DNA from: Thainema sp.
GTDB taxonomy: Bacteria > Cyanobacteriota > Cyanobacteriia > Phormidesmidales > Phormidesmidaceae
DNA length: 24,600 nt
Direction of reading: 5' to 3'
Assembly (NCBI GenBank): GCA_052168235.1
Contig: JBQLZK010000079.1
Span: 1 to 24,600 of the forward strand
Each line of letters starts with the position of its first letter. The first letter of the stretch is position 1. Position numbers and translations under genes: made by a program. This document shows positions 8,090 to 23,265 of this stretch, one piece after another. The notes under the pieces were generated by a model. The model did not search any database. It had not been told where the DNA came from and worked only from the letters and a program-made list of their open reading frames with translations.

Positions 8090-8319
8090 AGCAGCACCAG
8101 AATAATGAATTTGTGAGTCAGTATAAACGACTCAATGAACAGACTCATAAAAACCGCTCATAAAAACTGCGTCCATAAAAACAGTTTTTATGTTTTGCGA
8201 AAGCTAGACTGTGCTGGACTTGTGCCAAGCATCATTTGGGGTCTTGACAGACGGATTTGGCATCAGACCGGATGTGAGCGGCCAAAAATTCCTTAACAAG
8301 AGAAAGAAAAGCAATCACC

Positions 8320-8362
8320 TGTATCTCTAGGCACAGTTTTTCCCAAGTGTCGCCAATAAATT
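8320..8362 (+). promoter_or_regulatory. Putative NtcA-activated promoter of mop-modA
   Basis: tGTA-TCTCTAGG-CACa (GTA-N8-CAC, 8321-8334) followed after exactly 22 nt by TAAATT (TAN3T, 8357-8362). Confidence 0.55.
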
Positions 8363-8403
8363 TAACATGTGTCAAGGATACTAGCATTCGTCAAGAGACT
8401 CTT

Positions 8404-8613
8404 ATGAAAATTAGTGCTCGCAATGCCCTAAAAGGCTCCATCAAGCAGATCACACCCGGTGCGGTCACTACTGAAGTGGTTATCGAAGTTGCTCCTGGTG
8501 TTGAGATAACTTCCGTGATCACCAAGGCCTCAAGTGAAAAATTGGAACTTGCGGTCGGCAAAGAGGTATATGCCGTTGTGAAAGCTTCCAACGTTATGTT
8601 GGCTTTGGACTAG
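8404..8613 (+). CDS. mop: Molybdenum-pterin-binding protein (Mop/molbindin, single TOBE domain)
   Basis: MKISARNALKGSIKQITPGAVTTEV..ITSVITKASSEKLEL..VYAVVKASNVM is the classic Mop pattern. ATG 8404 is preferred over GTG 8347. Confidence 0.95.
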   Translation: MKISARNALKGSIKQITPGAVTTEVVIEVAPGVEITSVITKASSEKLELAVGKEVYAVVKASNVMLALD

Positions 8614-8625
8614 GAGCAAACAGTC

Positions 8626-9561
8626 ATGAATCGACGCCATTTCACCGTGTTGTCTACATTGGCTCTGGTCACATCTATAGGGGCTATCAGTTGCACGTCC
8701 TCACCTACAGCTTCTGATAATCAAGCCACGGATGCGGGTCGTCCTGAAGCGACTGTTGGATTGACCGTTTCCGTAGCGGCCAGTGTCCAGGACGCCATGA
8801 AAGACGTGCAGGAGGCATACCAGGCTGAGGAGCCAAACGTTGCGATTACCTACAACTTTGGTTCATCCGGTTCCTTAGCCCAGCAAATTTCTCAAGGGGC
8901 TCCCACCGATATCTTTCTCTCCGCTTCCGAGAAATGGATGGATGACTTAGAAGGGCAAGGGCAAATTTTAGAGGGATCTCGCAAAGACTTGTTGCTGAAT
9001 TCTCTGGTCTTGATTGTGCCCCAGGACAAGACGGACATTACCAACTTCAGCGACTTTGAAACCGATAAAGTCAGCAAACTTGCCTTAGGTGAACCGGAAA
9101 GCGTTCCCGCTGGTAAATACGCCCAGGAAGCGCTGACTGCAATGAACATGTTTGAAGCCCTGCAGCCCAAAATGGTGTTTGGTAAGGATGTGCGGCAGGT
9201 ACTGTCTTACGTTGAGACGGGCAACGTTGATGCCGGTCTAGTGTATGCCACCGATGCCAAAGTGTCTGACCAGGTGCAGGTTATTGCCACTGCTCCTGCC
9301 GATACCCACTCTCCCATCGTTTATCCAGTTGGAGTAGTCGCCGATAGCGAAAATGCCGAAGCCGCCCAATCTTTTGTCGATTTTTTATCCAGTGATACAG
9401 CAGTCGCCATCTTTGAGGAGTACGGTTTCGTTATCGTTTATCCAGTTGGAGTAGTCGCCGATAGCGAAAATGCCGAAGCCGCCCAATCTTTTGTCGATTT
9501 TTTATCCAGTGATACAGCAGTCGCCATCTTTGAGGAGTACGGTTTCGTTATGGCTGAATAA
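8626..9561 (+). CDS. modA: Molybdate ABC transporter substrate-binding lipoprotein with duplicated C-terminal 39 aa
   Basis: Lipoprotein-like signal ending GAISC. Motifs VAASVQDA, NFGSSGSLAQQISQGAP, PESVPAGKYA and DVRQVLSYVETGNVDAGLVYATDA. GGAG Shine-Dalgarno upstream. Confidence 0.95.
   Translation: MNRRHFTVLSTLALVTSIGAISCTSSPTASDNQATDAGRPEATVGLTVSVAASVQDAMKDVQEAYQAEEPNVAITYNFGSSGSLAQQISQGAPTDIFLSASEKWMDDLEGQGQILEGSRKDLLLNSLVLIVPQDKTDITNFSDFETDKVSKLALGEPESVPAGKYAQEALTAMNMFEALQPKMVFGKDVRQVLSYVETGNVDAGLVYATDAKVSDQVQVIATAPADTHSPIVYPVGVVADSENAEAAQSFVDFLSSDTAVAIFEEYGFVIVYPVGVVADSENAEAAQSFVDFLSSDTAVAIFEEYGFVMAE
9316..9549 (+). repeat. Exact 117-bp tandem duplication within modA
   Basis: 9316-9432 is identical to 9433-9549 and encodes IVYPVGVVADSENAEAAQSFVDFLSSDTAVAIFEEYGFV twice. 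Confidence 0.97.
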
Positions 9562-9654
9562 GGAGTTGTGCCTGACTAACTGACAACAGTTCCTTAGTAG
9601 TAGCGCGACCGATCTAACATGCCGGGTTGCCCCATTCCTTAAACCAGCGATCTT

Positions 9655-9679
9655 GTAGGGTGGGCGATGCCCACCTTAC
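9655..9679. repeat. GTAG-type REP-like small palindromic repeat
   Basis: GTAGGGTGGGC-GAT-GCCCACCTTAC forms a near-perfect hairpin. It resembles small dispersed repeats common in cyanobacteria. Confidence 0.75.
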
Positions 9680-9705
9680 CCAGCAAATTAAGCTGGCAGT
9701 GCTAC

Positions 9706-9802
9706 TACTGCTGTGTCAAATCAGTTTTGATGGTTGGTATGCCGTGCTCTGCGCGGCATACCAACCATCAAAACCCACCAAAACAAGGTTGACAAACCAC
9801 TA
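9706..9802. repeat. Small dispersed MITE-like repeat, copy 2
   Basis: Ends TACTGCTGTGTCAA..TTGACAAACCACTA. Inner 24-bp arms at 9724-9747 and 9751-9774 with one G-T mismatch. Confidence 0.85.
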
Positions 9803-9891
9803 CGACAGAATACTTTTTGGGCTTTGTCGGTCAAGTTGCTACGTTTCGGATCACCGTCGCCTCATAATCTATAGAAAATTTAGAAAATTTC

Positions 9892-11934
9892 ATGCCAGCA
9901 GATCTCACTCCCCTCTGGATTTCGCTAAAAACGGCGGCTGTCGCTACTGTTATGGCCGCGTTTTTAGGTATTTTGGTCGCTCGCTGGATGCTGAGCTATC
10001 GCGGAAAGGCCAAGGGCATAATTGATGGAGTGCTCACCCTGCCGTTGGTCCTGCCACCGACAGTAGTGGGGTTTCTGTTACTGCTGTTGTTGGGCAAGAA
10101 TAGTCCAGTTGGGCAATCTCTCAGTCAGCTCGGTATTTCTATTATCTTTACCTGGCCAGCAGCGGTGATTGCGGCGACGGTGGTGGCTTTTCCGCTGATG
10201 TACAAAACGGTGCTGGGTTCGTTTGAGCAGGTGGATCTGACTCTAATCAGCTCTGCCCGCACGCTGGGCGCTTCAGAAGGGCGGATTTTCTGGCAGATTT
10301 TGCTGCCTCTGGCTTGGTCGGGAGTGTTAGCGGGGACGGTGTTGGCCTTTGCCCGTGCCCTGGGAGAATTTGGGGCAACCTTGATGATCGGGGGCAGCAT
10401 TCCCGGTGTGACTCAAACGATTCCGATCGCAATTTTCTTTGCGGCTGAGGCGGGACGCATGGGAGTGGCCTTAGCCTGGGTATTGCTGATGATTGCGGTT
10501 TCGCTGGTGGTGATTGCCGGGATCAACTACGGCAACCGGAGCAAGTTCCATCAGCAAACACCTGTGAATGAATTGGTGAAGCGGGGCTTTAACTGGGTCT
10601 TTTTCAGGACATTGCGAGGCGACCAGTTTAATTTCGCTGCAACGGGAATGCCCGCTCCGGCTCATTCGCTCACAACTGCCTTCAATAAGCCACAGGCTGA
10701 TCGTCCTGTTTTAGCGTCGGGAAATGGCCCAACTCTTACTCTAGTTGGGGAATCAGCTTGGGAAAAATTCACTCCAGGGTCTGAGGCAGAGTGGATGCCC
10801 GTGACTCGCTCAGCGGTGATGCTAGCTCCTCGTCCGGCAGAAGATGCGATCGCAATCTCAACTGAGGCTGAGCTGGTAGTCAACATTGAGAAGCAGGTGT
10901 CAGGATTTCAGCTCAATGTAGGGTTTGCGACCAGCAGCCAGCCCCTGGGATTGTTGGGTGCTTCCGGATCAGGCAAGAGCATGATCCTGCGCTGTATTGC
11001 TGGCCTCGAAACGCCGACTCAGGGCCGGATTGTGCTGAACGGGCGGGTGCTGTTTGACTCCCATAAGCGGATTAATGTGCCAAGTCGCGATCGCAAAATC
11101 GGTCTGGTTTTCCAAAACTACGCGTTGTTTCCGCATCTCACCGTCGCCCAAAATATAGCCTTTGGCATGAACTCTATCCCCCAGCCTCAGCGGGTAGCAG
11201 AGGTGACGAAGTATCTTGATCAGATTGGGTTGACGGGACTAGGCGATCGCTATCCTCATCAGCTTTCAGGAGGACAGCAGCAGCGGGTTGCACTGGCCCG
11301 TGCCCTCGCGATCCAGCCCGATATTCTCTTGCTAGATGAGCCGTTGTCTGCCCTGGACACCTACCTGCGCAGCCACATTGAAAAGCTGCTGATCGAGGTG
11401 CTCTCCCACTACAACGGCATTACCCTGTTCATTACTCACAAACTGGAGGAAGCCTACCGGGTTTGCACCAATTTGCTGGTGCTCTCGGACGGACACATTC
11501 AGGCGGAAGGTACCAAAGAAGAGATTTTTGAACATCCCCCCACCTTTGAGGTGGCCAAGGTCACTGAATGTAAGAACTTCTCCCGTGCCCGACGATTAGA
11601 CGATTATCATATCGAGGCTCTAGACTGGGGCTGCTGTCTTAAAGTCAGTACGCCGATGCCTGCTGACAGTGGCTATGTCGGATTGCGAGCGCATCATATT
11701 AAATGCCTCCTAGAACCCAGTGAGAGCAACACTTTCCCCGGCTGGTTAGCCATGATTACCGAAACTCAGCACCGGGTAACACTTTACATTAAACTCCATA
11801 GTGAACCAAAGTCTCCCCAGGACTATCATCTCCAGGCAGAACTTTATCGCGATCAGTGGGATTTACTCAAAAGCCGCTCATTTCCTTGGCCAATCTGGCT
11901 CGATCCGGATCGCCTGATCCCGATGGCACGCTAA
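9892..11934 (+). CDS. modBC: Fused molybdate ABC permease / ATP-binding protein
   Basis: ModB part: LPLVLPPTVVGFLLL, SARTLGASEGRIF, FARALGEFGAT. ModC part: GASGSGKS, VFQNYALFPHL, LSGGQQQRVALARALA, LLLDEP. This fusion is known in cyanobacteria. Confidence 0.95.
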   Translation: MPADLTPLWISLKTAAVATVMAAFLGILVARWMLSYRGKAKGIIDGVLTLPLVLPPTVVGFLLLLLLGKNSPVGQSLSQLGISIIFTWPAAVIAATVVAFPLMYKTVLGSFEQVDLTLISSARTLGASEGRIFWQILLPLAWSGVLAGTVLAFARALGEFGATLMIGGSIPGVTQTIPIAIFFAAEAGRMGVALAWVLLMIAVSLVVIAGINYGNRSKFHQQTPVNELVKRGFNWVFFRTLRGDQFNFAATGMPAPAHSLTTAFNKPQADRPVLASGNGPTLTLVGESAWEKFTPGSEAEWMPVTRSAVMLAPRPAEDAIAISTEAELVVNIEKQVSGFQLNVGFATSSQPLGLLGASGSGKSMILRCIAGLETPTQGRIVLNGRVLFDSHKRINVPSRDRKIGLVFQNYALFPHLTVAQNIAFGMNSIPQPQRVAEVTKYLDQIGLTGLGDRYPHQLSGGQQQRVALARALAIQPDILLLDEPLSALDTYLRSHIEKLLIEVLSHYNGITLFITHKLEEAYRVCTNLLVLSDGHIQAEGTKEEIFEHPPTFEVAKVTECKNFSRARRLDDYHIEALDWGCCLKVSTPMPADSGYVGLRAHHIKCLLEPSESNTFPGWLAMITETQHRVTLYIKLHSEPKSPQDYHLQAELYRDQWDLLKSRSFPWPIWLDPDRLIPMAR

Positions 11935-12045: not shown

Positions 12046-12342
12046 ATTGAGAATAAATATTATTTGGCTGCTACTTAAACTGAGATTGAGTACATTGCAG
12101 TTCCTCCAACTACCACATCGTTTTGCTGAAGGTTGGCTGTGTCCTTGATTAATTAGGTTTCCTATCGCTACTTATCTTTCATGACGTTACCCCGTTAAGT
12201 AACTAACCCAACTTTGCGATCGCGAACCGTTTCCATCTCCAACCCTCGCAATTGATTACTTATCTCAAAAAGATCGTTAAATAGCTTTTTAGTGATAAAG
12301 TGATTTTTGTGTCTTGTCGGCAAGTTAGGAATTATTCTCGCT
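12046..12342. promoter_or_regulatory. Three candidate Fur boxes upstream of feoA
   Basis: ATTGAGAATAAATATTATT (12046-12064), ATTGATTACTTATCTCAAA (12251-12269) and GTTAGGAATTATTCTCGCT (12324-12342). Each partially matches the palindrome ATTGAGAAT-N-ATTCTCAAT. Confidence 0.55.
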
Positions 12343-12386: not shown

Positions 12387-13067
12387 ATGGAATTTGATTC
12401 AGCAGTTAATACCGCTTCAGATGCCTCGGTTGATGCTCAATTTTGGAACGTAACGTTTATCGGTGGCACTGCCGACACAGAAGACGCTCCATCACTCCGT
12501 CCTCAGGTTGCCGCTCCAGCTTCAAGTGGAGAAAGTTTGCCTTTGGCGATGACGACGGTTGGAACTCGGGTGTGGATCGTCCAGATTAAAGGCGGGCATC
12601 GGATGGCACGCCGCCTCACCGATTTGGGGATCGTTCAGGGCAGCGAGGTTACCATCGTTAGCCGGACTGAAAGCGGCTCGGTCATCGTAGGACTACAAGG
12701 TTGCCGCATTGGTCTAGGCGCGGGCATGGCACACCGAGTCATGGTCAGCACTGTGCGGCAGGAGGTTTTTCAAATCACAACCCTTCAACAACCGACACAG
12801 CCTGTAAATGGAGATATTGCTATGCCAGCCACTTTACACCTGGATGCCCTCTCAGTGGGTCAATCAGGTCGCATCATTGGCTACGAAAAAGGTCAGCGTG
12901 CCTATCGAGAAAAACTGCTGTCAATGGGACTCACCCCTGGTACCCACTTCACCGTGACTCGCCAAGCTCCGATGGGTGATCCCATCAGCATTGAAGTGCG
13001 CGGCTTTAGGCTCAGTTTGAGAAAAGGGGAAGCGGCAGCGTTACGGGTTGAGGTTATAAGCAGATAA
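12387..13067 (+). CDS. feoA: FeoA protein with two FeoA domains
   Basis: Domain 1: RRLTDLGIVQGSEV..RIGLGAGMAHRVMV. Domain 2: YREKLLSMGLTPG..APMGDPISIEVRGFRLSLRKGEA. ATG 12387 (or TTG 12375) is the likely start. Confidence 0.9.
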   Translation: MEFDSAVNTASDASVDAQFWNVTFIGGTADTEDAPSLRPQVAAPASSGESLPLAMTTVGTRVWIVQIKGGHRMARRLTDLGIVQGSEVTIVSRTESGSVIVGLQGCRIGLGAGMAHRVMVSTVRQEVFQITTLQQPTQPVNGDIAMPATLHLDALSVGQSGRIIGYEKGQRAYREKLLSMGLTPGTHFTVTRQAPMGDPISIEVRGFRLSLRKGEAAALRVEVISR

Positions 13068-13081
13068 TGGAGAGATTCACC

Positions 13082-15409
13082 ATGTCAAACTACACCATTG
13101 CCCTACTTGGCAACCCCAACTGCGGCAAAACAACTCTGTTCAATGCCCTGACTGGAGCGAATCAGCAGGTGGGCAACTGGCCGGGAGTCACTGTTGACCG
13201 CAAAGAGGGCCGCTATCGCTACGGTGATAAAGCGATCACGGTGGTCGATCTGCCCGGTATCTATGCGATTGACTCGGAAGAGGACGGCAGTATTGATGAA
13301 GCCATTGCTCGTGACTATCTGCTATCCGGTACTGCCCAGGTTGTGGTTGATATCGTTGATGCGTCGAATCTAGAGCGTAACCTCTATCTCACCACCCAAA
13401 TTTTGGAAATGGGGGTGCCGTTGGTCATTGCGCTGAATATGGTTGATGTGGCTCAGGATCAGGGTATCCGCGTCAATCCTCATCTCTTATCAGAACGTCT
13501 AGGCTGTCCGGTGGTGCCGCTGGTGGCTTCCCGCGGACAGGGAGTTGATGAGTTACGGAGCTGTCTGGATGAGTTTTTGGTCGCTCCCCATCGTCCGAAA
13601 GCACAGGTCGTGTATCCATCCGTGCTGGAAGAAGCCTTGACGGCGTTGACGCCTGCCTTGGCAACCTCTGGATCCCCAACTCTCCGCGATCGCTGGACGG
13701 CGTTGAAGCTGCTGGAGTATGACGATACCCACGTGCCGGATCTGTCCCATGAGCTGTTGCGTCAAGTGGCTGAACAGCGCCACCGCATCCATCAAGTGTT
13801 GGGAGAAGATATTGACATTGCCGTGGCCGATAGCCGTTATGGCTATGCTCATCGTTTGGTCAACGATATTGCTAATCGTCCTCGTGAGGTCAACCTGACC
13901 CAGTCGGACAAAATCGACCAAGTGGTGCTAAATCGCTGGCTGGGCATTCCCATTTTCCTGGGCGTGATGTATCTGCTGTTTATGTTCGCCATTAATGTCG
14001 GCAGCGCTTTTATTGACTTCTTCGATATCCTCTTCGGCACGATCTTTGTCGATGGCTTTGGCCGACTGCTGGCCGCCATTGGACTGCCGGACATTGTGCA
14101 GGTGGTGCTGGCTAATGGCATGGGCGGCGGTATTCAAACCGTGGCGACTTTTATTCCGGTAATCGCTTGTCTCTTCCTGTTTATGGCGTTTTTGGAAGAC
14201 AGCGGCTACATGGCCCGGGCGGCCTTTGTCATGGATCGCTTTATGCGGTTTGTCGGGCTACCAGGAAAGTCCTTTGTACCGATGCTGGTAGGGTTTGGCT
14301 GTAATGTACCTGCGATTATGGCCACCCGGACGCTGGAGAGCAGGCGCGATCGCATTCTCACTATTTTGATGAATCCGTTCATGTCCTGCGGGGCCAGACT
14401 GCCGGTATATGCCTTGTTCGCAGCTGCATTCTTCCCCCGCGCTGGACAGAATGTGGTCTTCCTGCTCTACCTGATTGGCATGGGCATGGCCGTTGTCACC
14501 GGACTGATCATGAAGTACACCCTGCTGAAAGGCGAAGCGGCTCCCTTTGTAATGGAGCTACCCACCTATCACCTGCCTACCCTTAAGGGAGTGTTGATTC
14601 GAACCTGGGAACGGCTCAAGTCCTTCATTTTGCGAGCAGGGCAGGTGATTGTGATCATGGTGATGGTGCTCAGCTTGCTGAACTCCATTGGTACCGATGG
14701 CTCGATTGGCAACGAAGACAGTGAAAATTCCGTCCTCAGTTCCCTTAGTCAGAGGGTCACCCCAGTCTTTACGCCAATGGGGATCACCCAGGACAACTGG
14801 CCTGCTACGGTCGGTATCTTTACAGGTGTCTTTGCGAAGGAAGCCGTCGTTGGCACGCTCGACTCGCTTTACACTCAGCTGGGCCAAGATGAAGCCCTCG
14901 CTGCCGGAGTCAACGTGGACGAAGCAGAATTTGACTTCTTGGGCAACATCGGCGCAGCCTTTGCCACCATTCCGGCTAACCTGGCTGCCCTCACGGGTAC
15001 ACTGCTCGATCCCCTGGGTTTGTCCGTCGGTAACGTGAGTGATCTAGAAACCGCTGCCGCTGAGCAGGAAGTCGCTTACACTACCTTCGGTCAGATGGCC
15101 CTCCGCTTTGACGGGCGCGTTGGAGCCTTTGCCTATCTGCTGTTTGTGCTGATGTACTTCCCCTGCGTCGCTGCAATGGGAGCCGTCTACCGCGAAACCA
15201 ACGCTGGCTGGACTGCCTTTGTTGGCCTCTGGACCACGGCTCTAGCCTACTGGAGCGCCGTCATGTTCTACCAGGTGATGACCTTCACTCACCATCCTGC
15301 TAGCTCAGCCGCCTGGGTAATTGGCCTGGTCTTAATTGCGATCGCAACTATTATCGCCATGCGGTATTCCAAACCTGCAAGACAGCGGCGGTTGTTGTTG
15401 GGACGGTAG
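13082..15409 (+). CDS. feoB: Ferrous iron transporter B
   Basis: G-domain motifs GNPNCGKT, VGNWPGVTV, DLPG and ALNMVD. Membrane-domain motifs LEDSGYMARAAF, GFGCNVP, FMSCGARLP, FVMELP and YFPCVA. GGAGA precedes ATG 13082. Confidence 0.97.
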   Translation: MSNYTIALLGNPNCGKTTLFNALTGANQQVGNWPGVTVDRKEGRYRYGDKAITVVDLPGIYAIDSEEDGSIDEAIARDYLLSGTAQVVVDIVDASNLERNLYLTTQILEMGVPLVIALNMVDVAQDQGIRVNPHLLSERLGCPVVPLVASRGQGVDELRSCLDEFLVAPHRPKAQVVYPSVLEEALTALTPALATSGSPTLRDRWTALKLLEYDDTHVPDLSHELLRQVAEQRHRIHQVLGEDIDIAVADSRYGYAHRLVNDIANRPREVNLTQSDKIDQVVLNRWLGIPIFLGVMYLLFMFAINVGSAFIDFFDILFGTIFVDGFGRLLAAIGLPDIVQVVLANGMGGGIQTVATFIPVIACLFLFMAFLEDSGYMARAAFVMDRFMRFVGLPGKSFVPMLVGFGCNVPAIMATRTLESRRDRILTILMNPFMSCGARLPVYALFAAAFFPRAGQNVVFLLYLIGMGMAVVTGLIMKYTLLKGEAAPFVMELPTYHLPTLKGVLIRTWERLKSFILRAGQVIVIMVMVLSLLNSIGTDGSIGNEDSENSVLSSLSQRVTPVFTPMGITQDNWPATVGIFTGVFAKEAVVGTLDSLYTQLGQDEALAAGVNVDEAEFDFLGNIGAAFATIPANLAALTGTLLDPLGLSVGNVSDLETAAAEQEVAYTTFGQMALRFDGRVGAFAYLLFVLMYFPCVAAMGAVYRETNAGWTAFVGLWTTALAYWSAVMFYQVMTFTHHPASSAAWVIGLVLIAIATIIAMRYSKPARQRRLLLGR

Positions 15410-15421
15410 GGAAGAGTGAGA

Positions 15422-15728
15422 GGGTGGATGGGTGGATGAGTAGATGGGTGGATGGGTGCTAGGTACTGGATATTAGGTGTTGGGTTTTAGGTTCTGGGAG
15501 CTAAAAAATATCACTGAACATCACATCTAATGCCCAGCACTTCGTCACTCTAGCCTGGTACCTAATACCTAATACCTAGCACCCAATACCCCAAAAACTC
15601 ACTCCCTCTAAACCTAGTATCCAGAACCCAACACCCACCCATCTACCCATCCACCCATCCACCCATCCACCCATCCACCCATCCACCCATCTACTCATCC
15701 ACCCATCTACCCATCCACCCATCCACCC
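15422..15728. repeat. Short tandem repeats (octamer and heptamer) arranged as nested inverted arms
   Basis: Left side: GGGTGGAT-type octamers, then TAGGTAC/TAGGTGT/TGGGTTT heptamers. Right side: CCTAATA/CCTAGCA/CCCAATA heptamers, then 11 ACCCATCC-type octamers (15637-15724). Confidence 0.9.
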
Positions 15729-15739
15729 CTTTTCCCAAA

Positions 15740-15958
15740 ATGCTCCGCGACCTCCAAACCTACATCGCTCACCACGGCACGGTTTCCATTGCTGACCTGT
15801 CCTTACACTTTCACACTGATGGTCAGGCTATTCAACCCATGTTGACTAAGCTGAGCCGCAAAGGCCGCATTCGCAAATTGCCCGCCCCTGAGAAGTGTGC
15901 AAACTGTACCTGTTGCGACTTGAGTAGTTTGGAGTGCTATGAGTGGATAGGAAAGTGA
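15740..15958 (+). CDS. feoC: FeoC-like winged-helix protein
   Basis: [37 protein letters not shown] followed by a Cys cluster CANCTCC; lies directly after feoB. Confidence 0.88.
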
Positions 15959-16134
15959 ATGTTGAGTTCCAAGTTGTAAGCTATAGCCGTAGCAATATTG
16001 GTGTAGCAACATTGGTTAGGAGATCAGAAAATTCTGAAAACGTTCAAACGTTCGATTGTCTACTCAACCTAAATAGCGATAGCCGTAAGAACTCAACCTT
16101 CATAACTCACAACTTTATTCATCAAGGAAAACCG

Positions 16135-16680
16135 ATGCTTTCTCAATCCATGACCGATCGCCTCAACAAGCAAATCAATCTGGAGATGTACTCTTCCCAT
16201 CTGTATCTGCAAATGAGTTCCTGGTGTGCTTACCAGTCTTTGGATGGCTGCGAAGAATTTTTGCGGCTGCATGCTCAGGAAGAAGCGGGACATATGCATC
16301 GCTTACTCAGCTACATGCACGAGACTGGGGCATTCGTTGTCCTGGGCGGGATGGATGCACCGCCGACGCAGTTCGACTCACTGCAGGAGCTATTTGAGCG
16401 CATTTATGAGCACGAACAGTTCATTACCCGCAACATTAATGAGCTGGTACATTTCGCAAATACTGAGCCTGATTACTCAACACTGCAGTTTTTGCAGTGG
16501 TACGTAGCAGAGCAGCACCAGGAGGAGTTTTTGTTTAAGGGCATTCTGGACAAAATCAAGCTAATCGGCACCGAAGGTCAGGGACTGTTTTTGATTGATC
16601 AGGAAGTTGGCCGGCTGGCAAAGTCCCCGGCCAAAGAGGCAACATCTATGACGACGCCATCAACGACAGCAACCGTCTAA
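16135..16680 (+). CDS. ftnA: Non-heme ferritin
   Basis: LNKQINLEMYSSHLYLQMSSWC, HAQEEAGHM, YEHEQFIT and FLQWYVAEQHQEE show the ferroxidase-centre pattern. AAGGA precedes ATG 16135. Confidence 0.93.
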   Translation: MLSQSMTDRLNKQINLEMYSSHLYLQMSSWCAYQSLDGCEEFLRLHAQEEAGHMHRLLSYMHETGAFVVLGGMDAPPTQFDSLQELFERIYEHEQFITRNINELVHFANTEPDYSTLQFLQWYVAEQHQEEFLFKGILDKIKLIGTEGQGLFLIDQEVGRLAKSPAKEATSMTTPSTTATV

Positions 16681-16794
16681 GTTGACGGGGGTTACGATAG
16701 GCGAACTCAATGATGGAAAATAACCTTATCGTCATACAATGATGCAGTGGGTGTCTTGCCATACACTCACATCCGGACAAGGAGACGACACATT

Positions 16795-17115
16795 ATGTTG
16801 AATACACAAAGGCCCATTGGCTTGAGGGCTCATGTAGCGGAGTTGGCCAATAATCCCAATACTAAAGCTCTGGTGATTGGCGTAACGGCGGTGGCGATCA
16901 CACCAATTGTACTGCCGCTTGTGAAGCCCGCTCTGAAAGCAACAATTAAGTCAGGGGTGACGCTGTACGAAAAAGCAAAGATTGCGATCGCAGAAACGGG
17001 TGAAGTGCTAGCCGATGTCGCTGCAGAAGCCCGAGCCGAAGTACATGCAGGCTCTCAAAAGCAAGCGACCTTACCCGCAGCTGCTGCATCGTCTGAGTCT
17101 GGCCCTACAGGTTAG
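16795..17115 (+). CDS. DUF5132-like small membrane protein
   Basis: Hydrophobic ALVIGVTAVAITPIVLP, then KPALKATIKSGVTLYEKAK..AETGEVLADVAAEARAE, the pattern I recognise for DUF5132. AGGAG lies upstream of ATG 16795. Confidence 0.75.
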   Translation: MLNTQRPIGLRAHVAELANNPNTKALVIGVTAVAITPIVLPLVKPALKATIKSGVTLYEKAKIAIAETGEVLADVAAEARAEVHAGSQKQATLPAAAASSESGPTG

Positions 17116-17135
17116 ACATCAGAAGCGTAATTGAG

Positions 17136-17183
17136 AAAGGGCATGGGCTGCCGTCGTACCGTGGCGGGAGCCCATGCCCTTTT
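17136..17183. terminator. Hairpin, probable bidirectional terminator between convergent genes
   Basis: AAAGGGCATGGGCT (17136-17149) pairs with AGCCCATGCCCTTT (17169-17182). Confidence 0.75.
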
Positions 17184-17201
17184 AAGCTGCTTGGAGGCGA
17201 A

Positions 17202-17480
17202 TTAGGCGGCCAGTCTGTCGGATTCAGTATTGGCGACAGACAGTGCAGGTCGAGCTTCGGTATGACCTGCGGACATCTGCTTTTGCTTAACCCAATCCGA
17301 TAGGCTCATGCCCGGACAATAGGGAGAAGCAGACTGGCTGTGTGCTTTGGACAATAGCTTTGGCCCAAGTAGCAAAGCACCTAGACTAACTAGAGTCAAC
17401 GGGCCACCTAGATGACCATCTTCCAAAATCTCTTTGAAGTGGAAGGTGATAACTGATTTGTCGAGATGGATTAAAGACAT
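17202..17480 (-). CDS. Small hypothetical membrane protein; N-terminus resembles DUF5132-type proteins
   Basis: EILEDGHLGGPLTLVSLGALLLGPKLL is a Gly-rich hydrophobic segment ending in Pro, like the neighbouring protein. Confidence 0.55.
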   Translation of the reverse strand: MSLIHLDKSVITFHFKEILEDGHLGGPLTLVSLGALLLGPKLLSKAHSQSASPYCPGMSLSDWVKQKQMSAGHTEARPALSVANTESDRLAA

Positions 17481-17530
17481 AACATCACCGAGGCAGTAGC
17501 AGAACAGCAGGTTAAGCCAAGATTATTTAA

Positions 17531-17545
17531 TGAATAAGATTATCA
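17531..17545. promoter_or_regulatory. Candidate Fur box upstream of the 17480 ORF
   Basis: The minus strand reads TGATAAT-C-TTATTCA versus the 7-1-7 consensus TGATAAT-N-ATTATCA. Confidence 0.45.
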
Positions 17546-17772
17546 GTTAATTGATCGATGATTAATCGCTGATTGATAGACTTCGGCAAAGCCTTAAAAA
17601 TCGTATTAGATCGTCTGGGTAGCAAGAAACCCTTGAATTGTAGCCTTCTATGTACTGAAAACTGATTCAGTCATCGTTTAGCTAATTCAATCTGTTGCTT
17701 TTCAGCTTAGCAGAAAGCATATTCTTGATGCAATATCCTCGCAATAAGCAATTATATCTAAGTTTTGACTTT

Positions 17773-20001
17773 TTATTCAATAATGGCGTTGGGCAAAAAC
17801 TTATGCGTGACCAGGGGCCGCAGGCTGTTGAGTCCGGCTGCGATCGCAGATCCGTTGTGAATAATGGTTGCTACCAAAGGATTCAATCCTGCTGTGGACG
17901 CTAGCCCCAGCGCGACTAGGTTGGGCACCACGACCAGCGCAATATTCTGCTCAATCAGATCGCGGGTTTCGCGAGCGATGGCGATGGCTTCTAGTAGTTC
18001 GAGCAGGTTGTTGTTCATCAGCACCACGTCGGCGGTTTCGCGGGCAATGTCGGCTCCCCGCTCAAAGGACACGGAGACATCCGCGTAGGCCAAGGCGACG
18101 GAATCATTGAGGCCATCGCCGACAAAGGCCACGGTGCGACCTGCTCGGTGCAGATCCCGCACGATTTGGGCCTTCTGATCCGGGAACGCTTCGGCATAAA
18201 CATGTTCAGGCTGAATGCTCAGTTCGTCGGCAACCTGAGCGGCTCGCTGGGGATTGTCCCCCGTCAGCAGATGCAGTTCGAGATTAAACTGTCGCTGCAG
18301 CATGTGAACCAGGCGCGTACTTTCAGGCCGCAGGGGATCAGTGAAGCCCAAAGTGCCTGCAAATCGGCCATCACAGGCCACATAGATCTGCGAGAGGATG
18401 CTGGCTTTGGGATTTGTCCAGCCGTTCCAGTCCACCTGTTGCTGATGCAGGAATCGCTCACTGCCCACCAGAACGGTGTGCCCCTCGATTTGAGCGGTCA
18501 CACCAAACCCAACGATGTAATCCCAATCGTCACGCGGGAGGAGGGACAGTCCCTGCTGCTGGGCGTGATTCACGACGGCTTCCGCTACCGGATGGGTGAG
18601 CCGCTGTTCTGCTGAGGCGGCCAGTTGCAGCAGTCGTTCGGGTGAAAGGGTGTGTGGCACAGGAGAGACATCTGCGATCGCAATTCGTCCTTCGGTCAGT
18701 GTGCCAGTCTTATCAAAGACAATCGTGTCGATTTCGGCGAGCTGCTCCAGAGTCCGACCGCTGCGCACCAGCACCCCGTGACGAGTCGTGTGGTTCAGCG
18801 CCCCTAGAAAAGCAGTGGGGATCGAAACCCGAATACCCGTGACAAAATCCAGCGTCAGGATCGCCGCCGCCCGCGCTGGATCGCTCGTAATGCCTAGGAC
18901 TAAGGTCGCTAGCAACAGCGATGGCACAATCAAGCGATCGGCAACTTTTTCCGTGTAGTTTGCCATGCGGGTATCGTAAACCGGGGCTTGCTGTAGCAGC
19001 CTCAATCCTGCTGCTGCTCGCGTATCATTGCCGACCCGTTCGGCCCGCAGGATGAGCTGTCCCGATCGCACCAGTGTGGACGCAAACACATAGCTGTCAG
19101 GCCGCGCCACAATGGGCATTGCCTCTCCGGTCAGCCCCTGCTGATCGACCGTAGCTTCTCCACCCAGCACGGTGCCATCAACCGGGATTTGCTCCCCCGG
19201 ATGAACAACTACGATATCACCCACCTGCACCTGGTCACTCGGCACCTGCCGCAGTTCGCCGCCTTCTCCCTTCACCCAGGCAAAGTGACCAATCGCATCA
19301 GCCAGCGTGGAGGAACGCACCTCTGTCGCGCGAGCTGTCTGTTCTCGAATAGCATCCCCTAGCTCATGCAGCGTAATCACCAGTGCCGGGGTTACCAGCT
19401 TGCCCTGCCAAGCACTCAGGCTCAAGGCCAACAAATCAAGACAGTCAATATTTAACCGCCGATCCTGCCAGAGGCTTTGGAAGGCTCGTTGAGCAATTGG
19501 GAAAATCGTCGTCGCCACAGTTGCTGCCGCCAAAGGCCGCAACCACCGCAAACTGGGGAACTGGCTCGCTAAGGCGAGAGCAGACGCTAATCCAGGCAGT
19601 TGTAGACCAGCCCACTGGTTATCCTGTGGAGAGGCTGTAGGGGCTGTAATTGAACCTTGTGAGGTTTCTGCTTCTGCGATCGCAGAATTATTGCTTGCCA
19701 CCGATACGGCCTGCTGAACTGCACGGTGTTCCAACTCACCCAGCAGCTCGCCCAGTCTCACCCAAAGCTGATCTGCCAGTGCGGGTTGATACTGAATCAC
19801 AACTGAACGAGCAGTTCGGTTAATGCGCAGATAAGTGATCCCTGGCGTCGTTTCGAGAGCCGCTTTCAGCCAAATCTCATGCTGATTATTGGCTCCCAGT
19901 TCTGGAACTCGTAGACGAACGCGACCGGGGAGTTGGTGGAGGATGATCCAGGTGGGGGAGAGTGGAGGAGTAGATGGGTCGGAGAGTCGGAGAGTGGACA
20001 T
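17773..20001 (-). CDS. Heavy-metal P1B-type ATPase with N-terminal HMA2-like domain (FezB/P1B-6-like variant)
   Basis: N-terminal LHQLPGRVRLRVP. Motifs LTGEA, FDKTGTLT, THPVA and GDGLNDS. TM motif LDFVTGIRVSIP replaces CPC, and the C-terminus has IIHNGSA. Confidence 0.9.
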   Translation of the reverse strand: MSTLRLSDPSTPPLSPTWIILHQLPGRVRLRVPELGANNQHEIWLKAALETTPGITYLRINRTARSVVIQYQPALADQLWVRLGELLGELEHRAVQQAVSVASNNSAIAEAETSQGSITAPTASPQDNQWAGLQLPGLASALALASQFPSLRWLRPLAAATVATTIFPIAQRAFQSLWQDRRLNIDCLDLLALSLSAWQGKLVTPALVITLHELGDAIREQTARATEVRSSTLADAIGHFAWVKGEGGELRQVPSDQVQVGDIVVVHPGEQIPVDGTVLGGEATVDQQGLTGEAMPIVARPDSYVFASTLVRSGQLILRAERVGNDTRAAAGLRLLQQAPVYDTRMANYTEKVADRLIVPSLLLATLVLGITSDPARAAAILTLDFVTGIRVSIPTAFLGALNHTTRHGVLVRSGRTLEQLAEIDTIVFDKTGTLTEGRIAIADVSPVPHTLSPERLLQLAASAEQRLTHPVAEAVVNHAQQQGLSLLPRDDWDYIVGFGVTAQIEGHTVLVGSERFLHQQQVDWNGWTNPKASILSQIYVACDGRFAGTLGFTDPLRPESTRLVHMLQRQFNLELHLLTGDNPQRAAQVADELSIQPEHVYAEAFPDQKAQIVRDLHRAGRTVAFVGDGLNDSVALAYADVSVSFERGADIARETADVVLMNNNLLELLEAIAIARETRDLIEQNIALVVVPNLVALGLASTAGLNPLVATIIHNGSAIAAGLNSLRPLVTHKFLPNAIIE

Positions 20002-20022
20002 GGGAGTGGAGGGTTTTGAATA

Positions 20023-20571
20023 TTAGGTATTGGGTGTTTCTTGTTCTGCCTGTTCAAGAATCTGCAATAACCTCATCCCCAGTTCAAGTTCTGATAGGTT
20101 GGTGCCGTCGTAACGGATGGCGATGGAGCTAGCGGCGCGGTTGATGCGGACGCCGAGGACAATATCTTGGGTCAGCAGCAGCTTTTCGAGGCGTTTGCCG
20201 AAAGCGGGTTCAGTTTGCAAGCGAGGAATGCGTAAGCGAATGCGACCGGGGACGGAGTGGACGATGGTGTAGTCTTCTTCGGCAGTTTCTGTTTTGCCGT
20301 TTGTGGACGTGGCAGCAAGGGCTGGAGTTGAAGGGGCATATCCTGCCTGCTTTTTAAGCTGCACAATGGCTTGCCGGGTAATGGCTGCGATCGCAATGTT
20401 GACTACCAGCGCACTCGCACCTCGTAGTCGTAACTGACTAGTAACGAGTAATCCGGTCAGCACTGGCAAGATAGCCGCAATTTCGCCGTATTCCTCCAAC
20501 AGATGTCCTAATTGAGAACTATTTTCAGTATTGCTAGCAGATTGAGCCTCGACTGTTGAAGATGTAATCAT
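20023..20571 (-). CDS. Membrane protein with C-terminal HMA2-like domain
   Basis: Hydrophobic IAAILPVLTGLLV..ALVVNIAIAAIT, then YTIVHSVPGRIRLRIPRL..VRINRAASSIAIRY. The domain is paralogous to the N-terminus of the adjacent ATPase, which lies 21 nt downstream. Confidence 0.8.
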   Translation of the reverse strand: MITSSTVEAQSASNTENSSQLGHLLEEYGEIAAILPVLTGLLVTSQLRLRGASALVVNIAIAAITRQAIVQLKKQAGYAPSTPALAATSTNGKTETAEEDYTIVHSVPGRIRLRIPRLQTEPAFGKRLEKLLLTQDIVLGVRINRAASSIAIRYDGTNLSELELGMRLLQILEQAEQETPNT

Positions 20572-20763
20572 TCTCGATCCTCTTGGTAGCTGGATGTCTC
20601 CAGAACTTCACTATCGATACTAAAACCTCTCGTTGCTAATTAATCTTATCTAAAAATTAATTTTGCGCAGGAATCGTGGGTTTTCTTCGCCCATCCATTG
20701 CAGTCCATTGCAGTGATGGTCTGGACAAAACGGGATCGGCAGTATCGACAAAATTGTGTACGA

Positions 20764-20779
20764 TGTATTTGGAGCTACA
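20764..20779. promoter_or_regulatory. Consensus NtcA box in the divergent intergenic region
   Basis: TGTA-TTTGGAGC-TACA (GTA-N8-TAC). Confidence 0.55.
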
Positions 20780-20826
20780 ATTAACTATATGTCTATTTGG
20801 ATATTAAGACGCACCTGGGTTCTGCC

Positions 20827-21423
20827 ATGCTAGATGACTTAGCTGCTGCCCTCTTCGAAGCGCTGCAGGATGAATACAAAGCTCGCGCCACCTATCGAGC
20901 CATCCTCAATCGGTTTGGGTCTGTTCGACCATTTATAAACATTTTGGAATCTGAGGAGCGACACATTCAAGCGTTGCTGCCTCTATTTAATCGGTACGGT
21001 ATTCCGGTGCCGGAGGATAACTGGTCTGCTCAGGTAGAAGTACCAGATTCTCTGGCTCAAGCCTGCGAGGGCGGCGTACAGGCCGAGATCGAGAATGGCG
21101 CAATGTATGAGCGGTTGTTGGCGATGACTGCGGTGTATCCCGATGTGCAGCAAGTATTTCGACAGCTCCAGCGAGCCTCCCAGCAGAATCATTTACCCGC
21201 CTTTCAGCGATGTGTAGCGCGAGCCGCTCGTCACTACGTGGAATCTGACCTAAGCGGACAGCAGCCTGCGGGTCGCTTCTGTTTAAGTCCCTCCGGCTGT
21301 GGACAGTTCGGTTCTGAAGATGAAAGCCAGAGTGAAACGCCAGTCAGAACTGGCCGAGAATGGAAACAAGGACGAAGACGCCGCCACCGTCGTGGCAACT
21401 ATGGTCAATCAAGACAGGGTTAG
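20827..21423 (+). CDS. Ferritin-like (DUF2202-like) four-helix-bundle protein
   Basis: ALQDEYKARATY..RPFINILESEERH..QAEIENGAMYERL..ASQQNHLPAFQRC gives a paired E/ExxH di-metal pattern, followed by an Arg-rich tail. ATG 20827 is preferred over TTG 20797. Confidence 0.8.
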   Translation: MLDDLAAALFEALQDEYKARATYRAILNRFGSVRPFINILESEERHIQALLPLFNRYGIPVPEDNWSAQVEVPDSLAQACEGGVQAEIENGAMYERLLAMTAVYPDVQQVFRQLQRASQQNHLPAFQRCVARAARHYVESDLSGQQPAGRFCLSPSGCGQFGSEDESQSETPVRTGREWKQGRRRRHRRGNYGQSRQG

Positions 21424-21608
21424 GTTTCAAACCTGTAAATAGCGTGAGTGATAGGCGCGATGCACCCCACCCACCCACACCATTTACAGATCTAGATTCA
21501 GCAATCAAGACAGGACTGACACTACCGGATTTTTGGTAAGTTAAGAATTCCTGCGCATCCAACGCTTGATGATCAGTGGTCAACAAAGGGTGATAGGATA
21601 CGCTAACC

Positions 21609-21796
21609 TTATCGGTTCTAGTGGAGATCAGCCACTAGAGGAAACGGGGAAAGTGCAGTGAAAATCTGCCGCTGTCCCGCAGCTGTAAGCCAATTTTAGA
21701 TTGCTGATTTTAGATTTTAGATTGAGTCATTAGCCTCTATTCCAAAATCCAAAATCCAAAATCCAAAGTTGTGTAAGTCAGAATGCCCGCCGATAA
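21609..21796 (+). ncRNA. Cobalamin (B12) riboswitch
   Basis: P1 pairing TTATCGG (21609-21615) with CCGATAA (21790-21796). Conserved blocks CGGTTC..AACGGGGAAAGT-GCAG-TGAAAAT-CTGC-CGCTGTCCCGCAGCTGTAA and the B12-box AAGTCAGAATGCCCGCC. Located upstream of cobW. Confidence 0.92.
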
Positions 21797-22206
21797 ATGG
21801 TTGATGTTCTATACCATCTGCGAGGTACGGATGATGACTGCTTTAGTATTGTTTGGGTCGCGATTCTGTTGTTTTAGGAGCGTCGTTACAAAGCTCCAAA
21901 GGCAGGAATGGGGCTAGCCGACTGTGCTGCTGCCCTAACCATTGGTTTTGAGTCTTGGTGAGCCAGTTGTTTTGCAGGAAGCTCGCCTGATTTGCACTGA
22001 TCATGTTTGTGCTAACCGCAATGTACGCATAATGTGCGATATCACAGCCCATAGTTACAACACTTATGAGGTCAGTGCTGAGGACTGAGTGAAATACAAT
22101 TCGCTGTCCTAACTCTGCTGCAATCAGTTGATCTCACTGCTGAATGTAAATACGAACGAAGAACCCAGTCTGCTGGTTGGTTAATTCAAATATTAGGAGC
22201 TATTTC

Positions 22207-23265
22207 ATGCACAAAATACCTGTTACCGTTGTCACTGGTTTCTTGGGATCTGGTAAAACCACCCTGGTTAGGCACCTGCTGCAAAATAATCAGGGTCGGC
22301 GTATTGCTGTATTAGTGAATGAATTTGGTGAAGTTGGCATTGATGGCGAAATTCTGAAAACGTGCCAGGTGTGCGACGACGATGAGAACTCTACCGCTGA
22401 GCCAAACACCAATATCTTAGAGCTAGCTAATGGCTGTCTTTGCTGCACCGTTCAGGAAGAGTTTTTGCCCACGATGCAAGAACTGCTGAAGCGACGGGAT
22501 GAAATTGATTGCATTGTGATTGAAACTTCGGGTCTAGCGCTCCCTAAACCTTTAATTCAGGCGTTTCGCTGGCCTGAAATTCGAACTGGAGCAACGGTAG
22601 ACGGGGTGGTCACGGTTGTCGATGGCGATGCCCTCGCTCAGGGACAAGTTGTGGGAGATCTGGAAGCGCTGGAAGCTCAGCGGCAGACGGATGACAGTTT
22701 AGAGCATGAAACCCCAATTGAAGAACTCTTTGAGGATCAATTGGCCTGTGCCGACATGGTGCTCCTGAGCAAAACGGATAGGATGACCAGGGAAAGTTGC
22801 GATCGCATCCAGCAGTGGCTGCAGCAACAGGTTCCCGCCGGGATCAAAGTTGTCCCCTGCAATCACGGTGAAATTAGCCCAGACATCCTGCTCGGCTTCA
22901 ATGCTGCGGTGGAAGACAACCTCGACAGTCGCCCCAGCCACCACGATACCGAGGAAGACCACGAGCACGATGACGATATCAACTCTGTCTATGTGGAACT
23001 AGAGCAAGCCTTTGATCCAGAGGGACTCATCGATCGCCTGCAAGCCTTGGTGCAGCAGCAGGAAATTTATCGCATTAAAGGCTTTGTCGCGGTTCCAGGT
23101 AAAGCTATGCGGCTGGTGCTGCAGGGGGTCGGACAGCGATTTGACAAGTTTTACGACCGCCCTTGGCAACCTGCTGAATCCCGCAAGACCCAATTGGTCT
23201 TTATCGGTCATGCCTTAGATGCAGACAAGATTAATACCGCGATCGCAGCCCAAATCGCAGCCTGA
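22207..23265 (+). CDS. cobW: Cobalamin biosynthesis protein CobW (COG0523 GTPase)
   Basis: KIPVTVVTGFLGSGKTT, VNEFGEVGIDG, ELANGCLCCTVQEEF, IETSGLALPKPL, a His/acidic patch SHHDTEEDHEHDDD, and YRIKGF. AGGAG precedes ATG 22207. Confidence 0.95.
   Translation: MHKIPVTVVTGFLGSGKTTLVRHLLQNNQGRRIAVLVNEFGEVGIDGEILKTCQVCDDDENSTAEPNTNILELANGCLCCTVQEEFLPTMQELLKRRDEIDCIVIETSGLALPKPLIQAFRWPEIRTGATVDGVVTVVDGDALAQGQVVGDLEALEAQRQTDDSLEHETPIEELFEDQLACADMVLLSKTDRMTRESCDRIQQWLQQQVPAGIKVVPCNHGEISPDILLGFNAAVEDNLDSRPSHHDTEEDHEHDDDINSVYVELEQAFDPEGLIDRLQALVQQQEIYRIKGFVAVPGKAMRLVLQGVGQRFDKFYDRPWQPAESRKTQLVFIGHALDADKINTAIAAQIAA

Follow-up and report, generated by a model that had tools for sequence, protein, structure and literature searches.

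Does the 24,600-nucleotide stretch analysed here (hereafter the window), which is an entire contig of the cyanobacterium Thainema sp. (JBQLZK010000079.1, assembly GCA_052168235.1), encode something akin to a ferrosome, the iron-storage organelle specified by fez gene clusters? A preliminary description of this DNA had placed five genes after feoA-feoB-feoC-ftn, namely those for a P1B-type ATPase, an HMA_2 membrane protein, two small single-helix membrane proteins and a divergent ferritin-like protein, and had proposed a ferrosome-like or otherwise Fe(II)-compartmentalising locus. We computed the gene content, the integrity of the pump, its tree position and site residues, the synteny and the Fur-type boxes. 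On this sequence evidence, the cluster is real, conserved and iron-linked, and is fez-like but not a fez cluster proper; it likely handles iron, and its ATPase probably moves ferrous iron. Of the earlier proposal, the likeness to fez genes and the link to iron, visible in the neighbourhood and in the Fur-type boxes, are upheld; identity with a fez cluster is not, and the compartment is a reading that we infer.

The position of the ATPase was examined in a FastTree tree of 197 rows (11 duplicate rows removed) and an IQ-TREE quick tree of 61 rows, with supports of the SH type and no bootstrap; the FezB rows were search hits selected for their motif, none of them an experimentally studied FezB protein. 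In both trees, the window ATPase lies inside a cyanobacterial subclade (support 100) marked by DFVTG in transmembrane helix 4 (TM4) and His in TM6. This DFVTG/His subclade is nested in a wide clade of DxxTG pumps (support 99), whose sister is the clade with the FezB motifs (99 and 97). FezB and DxxTG pumps together form a joint clade (support 100), with DxxCG pumps, CPC pumps bearing TM6 His-Asn and ordinary exporters outside it. Approximately unbiased (AU) tests on 32 rows rejected both the union of the subclade with FezB to the exclusion of other DxxTG pumps (p 9e-96) and its grouping with exporters (p 4e-48). Against a FezB hidden Markov model (HMM), the window ATPase reached 589 bits, versus 847-896 for 10 held-out FezB-motif proteins.

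Two identities were therefore rejected. The ATPase is not FezB, as it fails both signature motifs and falls outside the FezB clade, and its place is in the sister DxxTG clade. Neither is it a P1B-1 to P1B-4 exporter (CopA, ZntA, CopB or SPC type), since TM4 carries no CPC, CPH or SPC and the AU test speaks against such a grouping; the phylogenetic check that had been called for, against Zn/Cd/Co/Cu exporters, was in this respect passed. Judged from these trees, the ATPase is a sister of FezB and distinct from it, and because the subclade is nested among His-less pumps in the rooted trees, the TM6 His looks regained within it. The Thainema genome holds one pump of the DFVTG kind only; it also encodes two CPC copper pumps, one CPH, one ZntA-type and one SPC pump, and in the trees the window ATPase lies far from these Cu/Zn/Co exporters of its own genome.

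As defined in the ferrosome preprint (bioRxiv 10.1101/2020.01.10.902569), FezB carries D[Y/F]SCA in TM4, HNxxT in TM6 and an N-terminal arginine-rich (R-rich) motif without a CxxC metal-binding domain. The window ATPase departs from the first two, with DFVTG and HNGSA (His and Asn being kept), and shares the third. Indeed, the description of a P1B ATPase lacking CPC and bearing an N-terminal HMA_2 domain is confirmed: residues 20-73 form a Cys-free, R-rich, CoBaHMA-type HMA_2 domain matching PF19991, with conserved motif residues His22, Arg27, Arg29 and Arg31, DKTGT is intact, and Cys187 and Cys543 are the only cysteines of the protein. The residues of a looser P1B-6 hallmark, N...H-N-X-(S/T), are also present, at a spacing of 20 rather than 18. 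The model shows a confident P1B pump fold (pLDDT 88.8) whose best structural matches are of the CopA and ZntA types, no solved structure being closer.

The predicted metal site consists of Asp385, Thr388, Asn694, His715 and Asn716. Asp385, Asn694, His715 and Asn716 are invariant in the subclade (54/54 rows) and among FezB-motif pumps (28/28 rows); Thr388 and Gly389 are present in 54/54 subclade rows, and Asn686 in 100% of subclade and 89% of FezB-motif rows. The TM6 His occurs in just 2% of 85 other DxxTG rows, where position 715 is mostly Asn or Ser. P1B pumps export metal from the cytosol. The predicted Asp/Thr/Asn/His/Asn site, with oxygen and nitrogen ligands and no thiol, would by general coordination chemistry suit Fe(II) or Mn(II) and makes Cu(I), Zn and Cd less likely.

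How far does the link to iron extend beyond this contig? At 50-82% identity, 46 of 60 loci matched, all cyanobacterial by title save one unclassified bacterium. A sample of 401 genomes from the class, with two candidates per genome scored, gave 61 with a match at E 1e-110 or better and 26 with one of at least 53% identity; of the latter, 20 were examined and all 20 have the DFVTG/His pump, DLVTG replacing DFVTG in one. A search of one congeneric genome returned no match to the ATPase. With the FezB profile, no canonical FezB was found in the 401 genomes (best score 627 bits, versus 847-896 for the held-out FezB-motif proteins), so that the DFVTG subclade could fill the FezB role in these organisms.

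Neighbourhoods were scored with our own query set around 56 pumps of the DFVTG type and 31 cyanobacterial DxxTG pumps outside it (9 duplicate loci removed), the latter hand-picked from hits and several of the former being close kin (Okeania, Dapis); 33 and 21 loci, respectively, were full-flank, with 7 kb on both sides. An iron gene lay within 7 kb in 25/33 full-flank DFVTG loci versus 0/21 others, a descriptive contrast in view of the hand-picking, the close kin and the single clade of the DFVTG pumps. Among the 33 loci, 22 held a feo gene, eight a DUF2202 gene and five a ferritin gene. The HMA_2 gene was retrieved in 27/33 and a DUF5132 or orf92 gene in 24/33, which bears out the expectation that the small genes be syntenic across many cyanobacteria; partner genes are usual, not obligatory. 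Iron genes near other DxxTG pumps were seen in 4/31 cases, all four sharing the locus with a DFVTG copy.

This linkage is kept across rearrangements: feo may be in line, convergent or divergent and of two FeoB types, or be replaced by TonB-ExbBD-FecCD or isiA. Of 25 loci whose gene order was compared, eight (L026, L029, L030, L031, L032, L046, L080 and L089, of which two are closely related) have the pump behind feo in the same direction with short gaps: 3, 186, 51, 19 and 79 bp in L089, while in L026 (Arthrospira platensis PCC 7345) feoABC, DUF2202, HMA_2 and pump genes all run in one direction. In JSC-12, feoABC-ftn has been noted as a likely operon, this pump not being mentioned (PMC8223812). 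The iron transcriptome of Trichodesmium IMS101 showed no such cluster beside feoB (rows Tery_2870-2889). Two observations concern the pumps themselves. In L052, L054, L055 and L056, the feo genes lie between a DFVTG/His pump and one of DFATG/Asn or DLATG/Asn type, and the partners go with the latter. One pump copy, 62% identical (G085:C1:3171910-3173397), has an internal TAG stop.

In the window, open reading frame (ORF) and family scans recovered all five genes where the preliminary description had placed them (table 1). They do not form one operon: feoABC-ftn-DUF5132 and HMA_2-ATPase-orf92 are convergent and the DUF2202 gene is divergent. The gap between the HMA_2 and ATPase genes is 21 bp. 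As far as sequence can tell, the cluster shares with fez clusters a setting among genes of iron homeostasis and putative regulation by Fur.

Table 1. Positions in the window of the iron-related genes and of matches to the Fur-type matrix.
Feature	Position	Strand	Evidence or remark
Strong Fur-type box upstream of feoA	12046..12064		18.9 bits; 0/1000 dinucleotide shuffles
feoA, two FeoA domains	12387..13067	+	ORF and family scans
feoB, ferrous iron importer	13067..15409	+	ORF and family scans
feoC	15740..15958	+	PF09012, E 2e-16
ftn, non-heme ferritin	16135..16680	+	NF007638, above cut-off
DUF5132 single-helix membrane protein, 106 aa	16795..17115	+	PF17195, E 2.5e-14
orf92, 92-aa single-helix protein, diverged DUF5132 paralogue	17202..17480	-	hhalign, orthologue match
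Weak Fur-like site upstream of orf92, position conserved in orthologues	17525..17551		6.4 bits; 209/1000 shuffles, not significant alone
P1B-type ATPase, 742 aa	17773..20001	-	TIGR01525, above cut-off; intact DKTGT; no CPC
HMA_2 protein, 182 aa, first gene of ATPase unit	20023..20571	-	PF19991
Second Fur-type match, in 5' end of HMA_2 gene	20511..20529		14.9 bits, no shuffle control; may be chance
Fur-type box, divergent gap between HMA_2 and DUF2202 genes	20632..20650		13.3 bits; 2/1000 shuffles
DUF2202 ferritin-like protein	20827..21423 (likely ATG 20827; ORF opens 20797)	+	Family scan

Fur-type boxes were scored with a palindromic matrix trained on 13 sequences from upstream of feoA in relatives, the window being left out; it replaced a generic Fur consensus that gave weak scores except at feoA. 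The boxes reported earlier hold before feoA and the HMA_2 gene, and are weak before the DUF5132 gene (41/1000 shuffles) and orf92. Across relatives, the mean best score was 6.1 versus 0.3 in shuffles for 27 orf92 orthologues (site mostly 63-99 nt upstream), 3.5 versus 1.3 for 38 HMA_2 genes and 2.7 versus 1.7 for 30 DUF5132 genes. Matches above 13 bits number 67 sites in the 7.5-Mb genome. The top ones (33 ORFs scanned) precede fur, three TonB-dependent receptors, TonB, ExbB and an IsiA-like protein, or lie beside four AraC regulators, a Dps/PerR-like pair and unrelated genes. Sigma-70 and terminator scans gave counts below chance.

The partner proteins resemble those of fez clusters to different degrees. 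Both small proteins have the single helix ascribed to them, but the Gly/Ala richness applies to DUF5132 (Gly+Ala 27%) and not to orf92 (just 17%). DUF5132 combines one membrane helix with an Ala/Glu-rich helix; orf92, which has a conserved N-terminal motif, aligns with it (hhalign 84%, E 8e-6), and its Dapis orthologue matches PF17195 at 2.6e-12. DUF5132 also aligned with the gene directly upstream of an Azospirillum FezB-motif pump (77% probability, E 2e-5). Two DUF5132 sets compared with 11 DUF6110-type proteins gave 10.6% and 59%, the first at a score of 21.8, with 40 column shuffles at or below 18.2. In seven loci from the phylum of genome G412, a DUF6110-type HMM matched 4/478 ORFs, all four DUF5132-like. 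From these profiles, DUF5132 would be a distant relative, weakly supported, of the small proteins beside FezB-motif pumps, and the DUF6110 genes appear FezA-like by our reading of the description in the ferrosome preprint (bioRxiv 10.1101/2020.01.10.902569). Most other small genes of three proteobacterial fez clusters gave no match to the small proteins of the window. The suggested comparison with Fez profiles thus yields weak homology to proteins beside FezB-motif pumps, with the GxxxG motif mostly absent.

The 20023-20571 protein has moderately hydrophobic N-terminal helices and a C-terminal HMA_2 domain matching PF19991, that is, the R-rich HMA-like domain expected of a FezC/FezD-type partner; in FezC, the HMA-like domain is N-terminal. 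Its model found no Foldseek match at E 0.001. The DUF2202 protein shares 39% identity over 132 aa (E 1e-34) with the DUF2202 protein of an Arcobacter FezB-motif cluster; a second copy in the Thainema genome lies in a non-iron setting.

Relative to fez clusters as outlined in that preprint, the window shares a sister-clade pump with the common Asp/Asn/His/Asn, an R-rich Cys-free N-terminal domain, an R-rich partner with hydrophobic helices, small single-helix proteins, DUF2202, and linkage to Feo and Fur; it differs in DFVTG/HNGSA, scarce GxxxG, a tail-less DUF2202 and an oxygenic host. FezH and related P1B ATPases of the same source also have the R-rich motif, with different membrane site residues, and such pumps, it is suggested there, may load compartments as well (bioRxiv 10.1101/2020.01.10.902569). 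FezH is a second pump beside FezB, with a site motif of its own, and no FezB was found in the Thainema genome or in the 401 sampled cyanobacteria. No locus examined combined a FezB-motif and a DxxTG pump, and in the phylum of genome G411 no DxxTG pump adjoined FezB among the matches listed. A metagenome scan with generic P-type patterns, which mostly returned unrelated pumps, was a source of FezB-motif loci. A literature search of titles and abstract starts turned up no description of this cluster or of a cyanobacterial ferrosome; the tables of the preprint may list such pumps. In that search, DUF5132 turned up in a single paper, which deals with calcium carbonate.

What, then, would the cluster do? 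We regard it as possible, at somewhat less than an even chance, that it is a Fur-regulated Fe(II) storage module working like a fez cluster, with a ferrosome-like store; the metal, the sign of regulation, the destination and any organelle are what we infer. Under iron limitation, Fur would release the feo operon and the HMA_2-ATPase unit. When Fe(II) returns, it is imported by Feo, and the ATPase, by its O/N site, would move it from the cytosol into an internal space enclosed by membrane, which would be a vesicle akin to a ferrosome or else a lumen derived from thylakoids. By analogy with PacL for CtpC, the HMA_2 protein and both DUF5132 proteins may stabilise and cluster the pump via its N-terminal domain, while ferritin and the DUF2202 protein would handle the cytosolic share of iron. 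A pump wired to the Feo importer suggests an internal destination, as for fez genes, since iron would cycle futilely if one promoter drove both import and export at the cell surface, which an internal store avoids. In C. difficile, a fur mutant is reported to overexpress the fez genes. More tentatively, a mostly filamentous, mat-forming minority of cyanobacteria could build a ferrosome-like organelle with a pump of its own, a sister of FezB without a thiol ligand in which the TM6 His came back and whose gene became part of the Feo operon.

Several points weigh against this storage reading. In the pump, the FezB Cys is replaced by Thr388 and the last Thr by Ala719 in 54/54 subclade rows. GxxxG occurs near the membrane helix in 10/11 FezA-like proteins versus 4/33 DUF5132 and 3/29 orf92 proteins; in the window, DUF5132 has none and orf92 one just before the helix. 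The hydrophobic GxxxG tail of the Arcobacter DUF2202 protein, a fez feature, is absent in 13/13 aligned cyanobacterial copies. In the phylum of genome G412, 7/7 DxxTG loci have DUF5132-like and HMA_2 genes and no iron-gene query match, so the partner genes, by their occurrence, make up a generic set that is not confined to iron-gene settings. Within the subclade, 8/33 full-flank loci have no query-set iron gene within 7 kb, 6/33 (L053, L090, L091, L093, L094 and L095) have no partner gene in that range, and the iron link, within a single clade, could go back to one event passed on by descent. The matrix also matches at two ZnuA genes, and a ferritin gene is already adjacent. A Fur box leaves the sign of control undecided, some iron exporters being Fur-activated. 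According to the literature, aerobic S. putrefaciens and R. palustris form no ferrosomes (bioRxiv 10.1101/2020.01.10.902569), the ferrous phosphate mineral of ferrosomes oxidises in air, and Microcystis calcyanin is flanked by DUF5132 and CoBaHMA genes (bioRxiv 10.1101/2024.07.07.602159; PMC8890360). Many carriers belong, by their titles, to benthic or mat-forming genera, in which night-time anoxia could presumably supply the needed conditions.

The strongest competitor, which we consider unlikely, is a platform for Fe(II) export in which no organelle is formed: a DUF5132-clustered pump, effluxosome-like, would expel iron to the periplasm or the ordinary thylakoid lumen and protect photosynthesis when Feo overshoots. 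The scarcity of GxxxG motifs would fit it, as would the ATPase unit of the window, on the strand opposite feo with its own Fur-type box. The PacL-CtpC effluxosomes of mycobacteria (PMC13460109) offer a parallel in a P1B-6-like pump with a Cys-free N-terminal domain and a small single-helix Glu/Ala-rich protein. There, PacL proteins stabilise CtpC, a zinc exporter, at the plasma membrane, and DUF6110 is termed PacL-like; DUF5132 shares the PacL plan of one membrane helix and an Ala/Glu-rich helix. CtpC nevertheless keeps CPC, and its partner is DUF1490 rather than DUF5132. Direct similarity of DUF5132 to PacL (DUF1490) is marginal (hhalign 4.6%, E 0.009), with weak profile links to DUF6110, and the eight loci with the pump in line behind feo fit storage better.

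Quite improbable, in our view, is a pump for Mn, Co or Ni, any of which would become harmful or be needed in iron starvation, so that the pump would belong to the Fur regulon. The loss of Cys leaves a site as suited to Mn(II) as to Fe(II), and related DxxTG pumps occur where no iron genes were found; yet the linkage to ferritin, DUF2202 and feo recurs, the last in several orders, and the His in common with FezB sets the iron-linked subclade apart. The least tenable reading, which we consider very improbable, is a calcium or carbonate biomineralisation kit, because although PF19991 is CoBaHMA, calcyanin neighbourhoods share the CoBaHMA and DUF5132 families, the DUF5132 gene adjacent to Microcystis ccyA is co-expressed (bioRxiv 10.1101/2024.07.07.602159; PMC8890360) and 8/31 rows of sister cyanobacterial pumps, in which Asn replaces His, have cax or a Ca-ATPase close by, those calcyanin loci sit with cax and ccyA whereas DFVTG pumps sit with iron genes, a Ca transporter occurs within 7 kb in 0/56 DFVTG loci (4/21 full-flank loci of other DxxTG pumps), and an HMM of the R-rich domain found no further clear member in the Thainema genome (two weak copper-pump HMA matches only), and hence no CoBaHMA-type calcyanin.

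Related pumps elsewhere were noted in passing. Sister pumps with TM6 Asn (L010-L013, L099-L115) are often paired and near cax, a Ca-ATPase or carbonic anhydrase; L115 groups carbonic anhydrase, two DUF5132 genes, R-rich small proteins and two ATPase-like genes. From this setting, the Asn-type pumps are candidate calcium pumps for intracellular carbonate formation. A glycine-zipper protein near one sister pump (L215) was tried as a calcyanin and rejected, its repeat layout being different. P1B-like ATPases without Asp or Cys at the TM4 site occur at L202:8353-10533, L203:2330-4384 and L212:8448-10517 and 14871-17084, two of the four directly following a large adenylation-domain-like gene. On a Bosea plasmid (L198, 2243-6474), a P1B ATPase with an unusual TM4 site lies between ferric-reductase-like and VIT1/CCC1 genes, possibly another iron-handling unit.

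The rest of the window holds features of other kinds. Between feoB and feoC, 8-bp tandem units in opposite orientations (15410-15728) could pair as a hairpin. A cobalamin riboswitch (21598-21808; RF00174, 58.4 bits) precedes a CobW gene (22207-23265), and a 7-bp unit is tandemly repeated at 21741-21767. A molybdate-uptake-like cluster (6950-11934; regulator, small Mop-like gene, binding protein and fused permease-ATPase) was named from translations alone; an exact 117-bp tandem duplication, in frame at the 3' end of the modA-like gene (9316-9551), could be an assembly artefact. An ABC-transporter-like reading spans two overlapping, possibly frameshifted ORFs (253-1355).

Ferrosomes have been described from anaerobically grown cells; cyanobacteria need much iron and produce oxygen. 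If the cluster does build a ferrosome-like organelle, this would rank as the first iron store of oxygenic phototrophs to be bounded by a membrane. A cytoplasmic Fe-P-O particle of about 100 nm has been observed in a cyanobacterium (PMC9670899, Fig. 1 legend; cf. PMC5376642), and no genes for the intracellular particles of this kind that some cyanobacteria form are named in the texts consulted; Leptolyngbya JSC-1 and Fischerella JSC-11 are among the strains with iron particles inside the cell. If the organelle exists, the cluster would be a candidate for the genes behind the Fe-P particles, so far unexplained, that siderophilic cyanobacteria contain. It constitutes in any case a precise gene set in named cultured strains, among them Arthrospira platensis PCC 7345, Calothrix NIES-4101 and Alkalinema CENA528. 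Should there be no organelle, the cluster still defines a P1B site without a sulfur ligand, and one kit of R-rich HMA domain, small helix protein and pump appears beside iron genes in one cyanobacterial subclade and beside calcium genes in its sisters.

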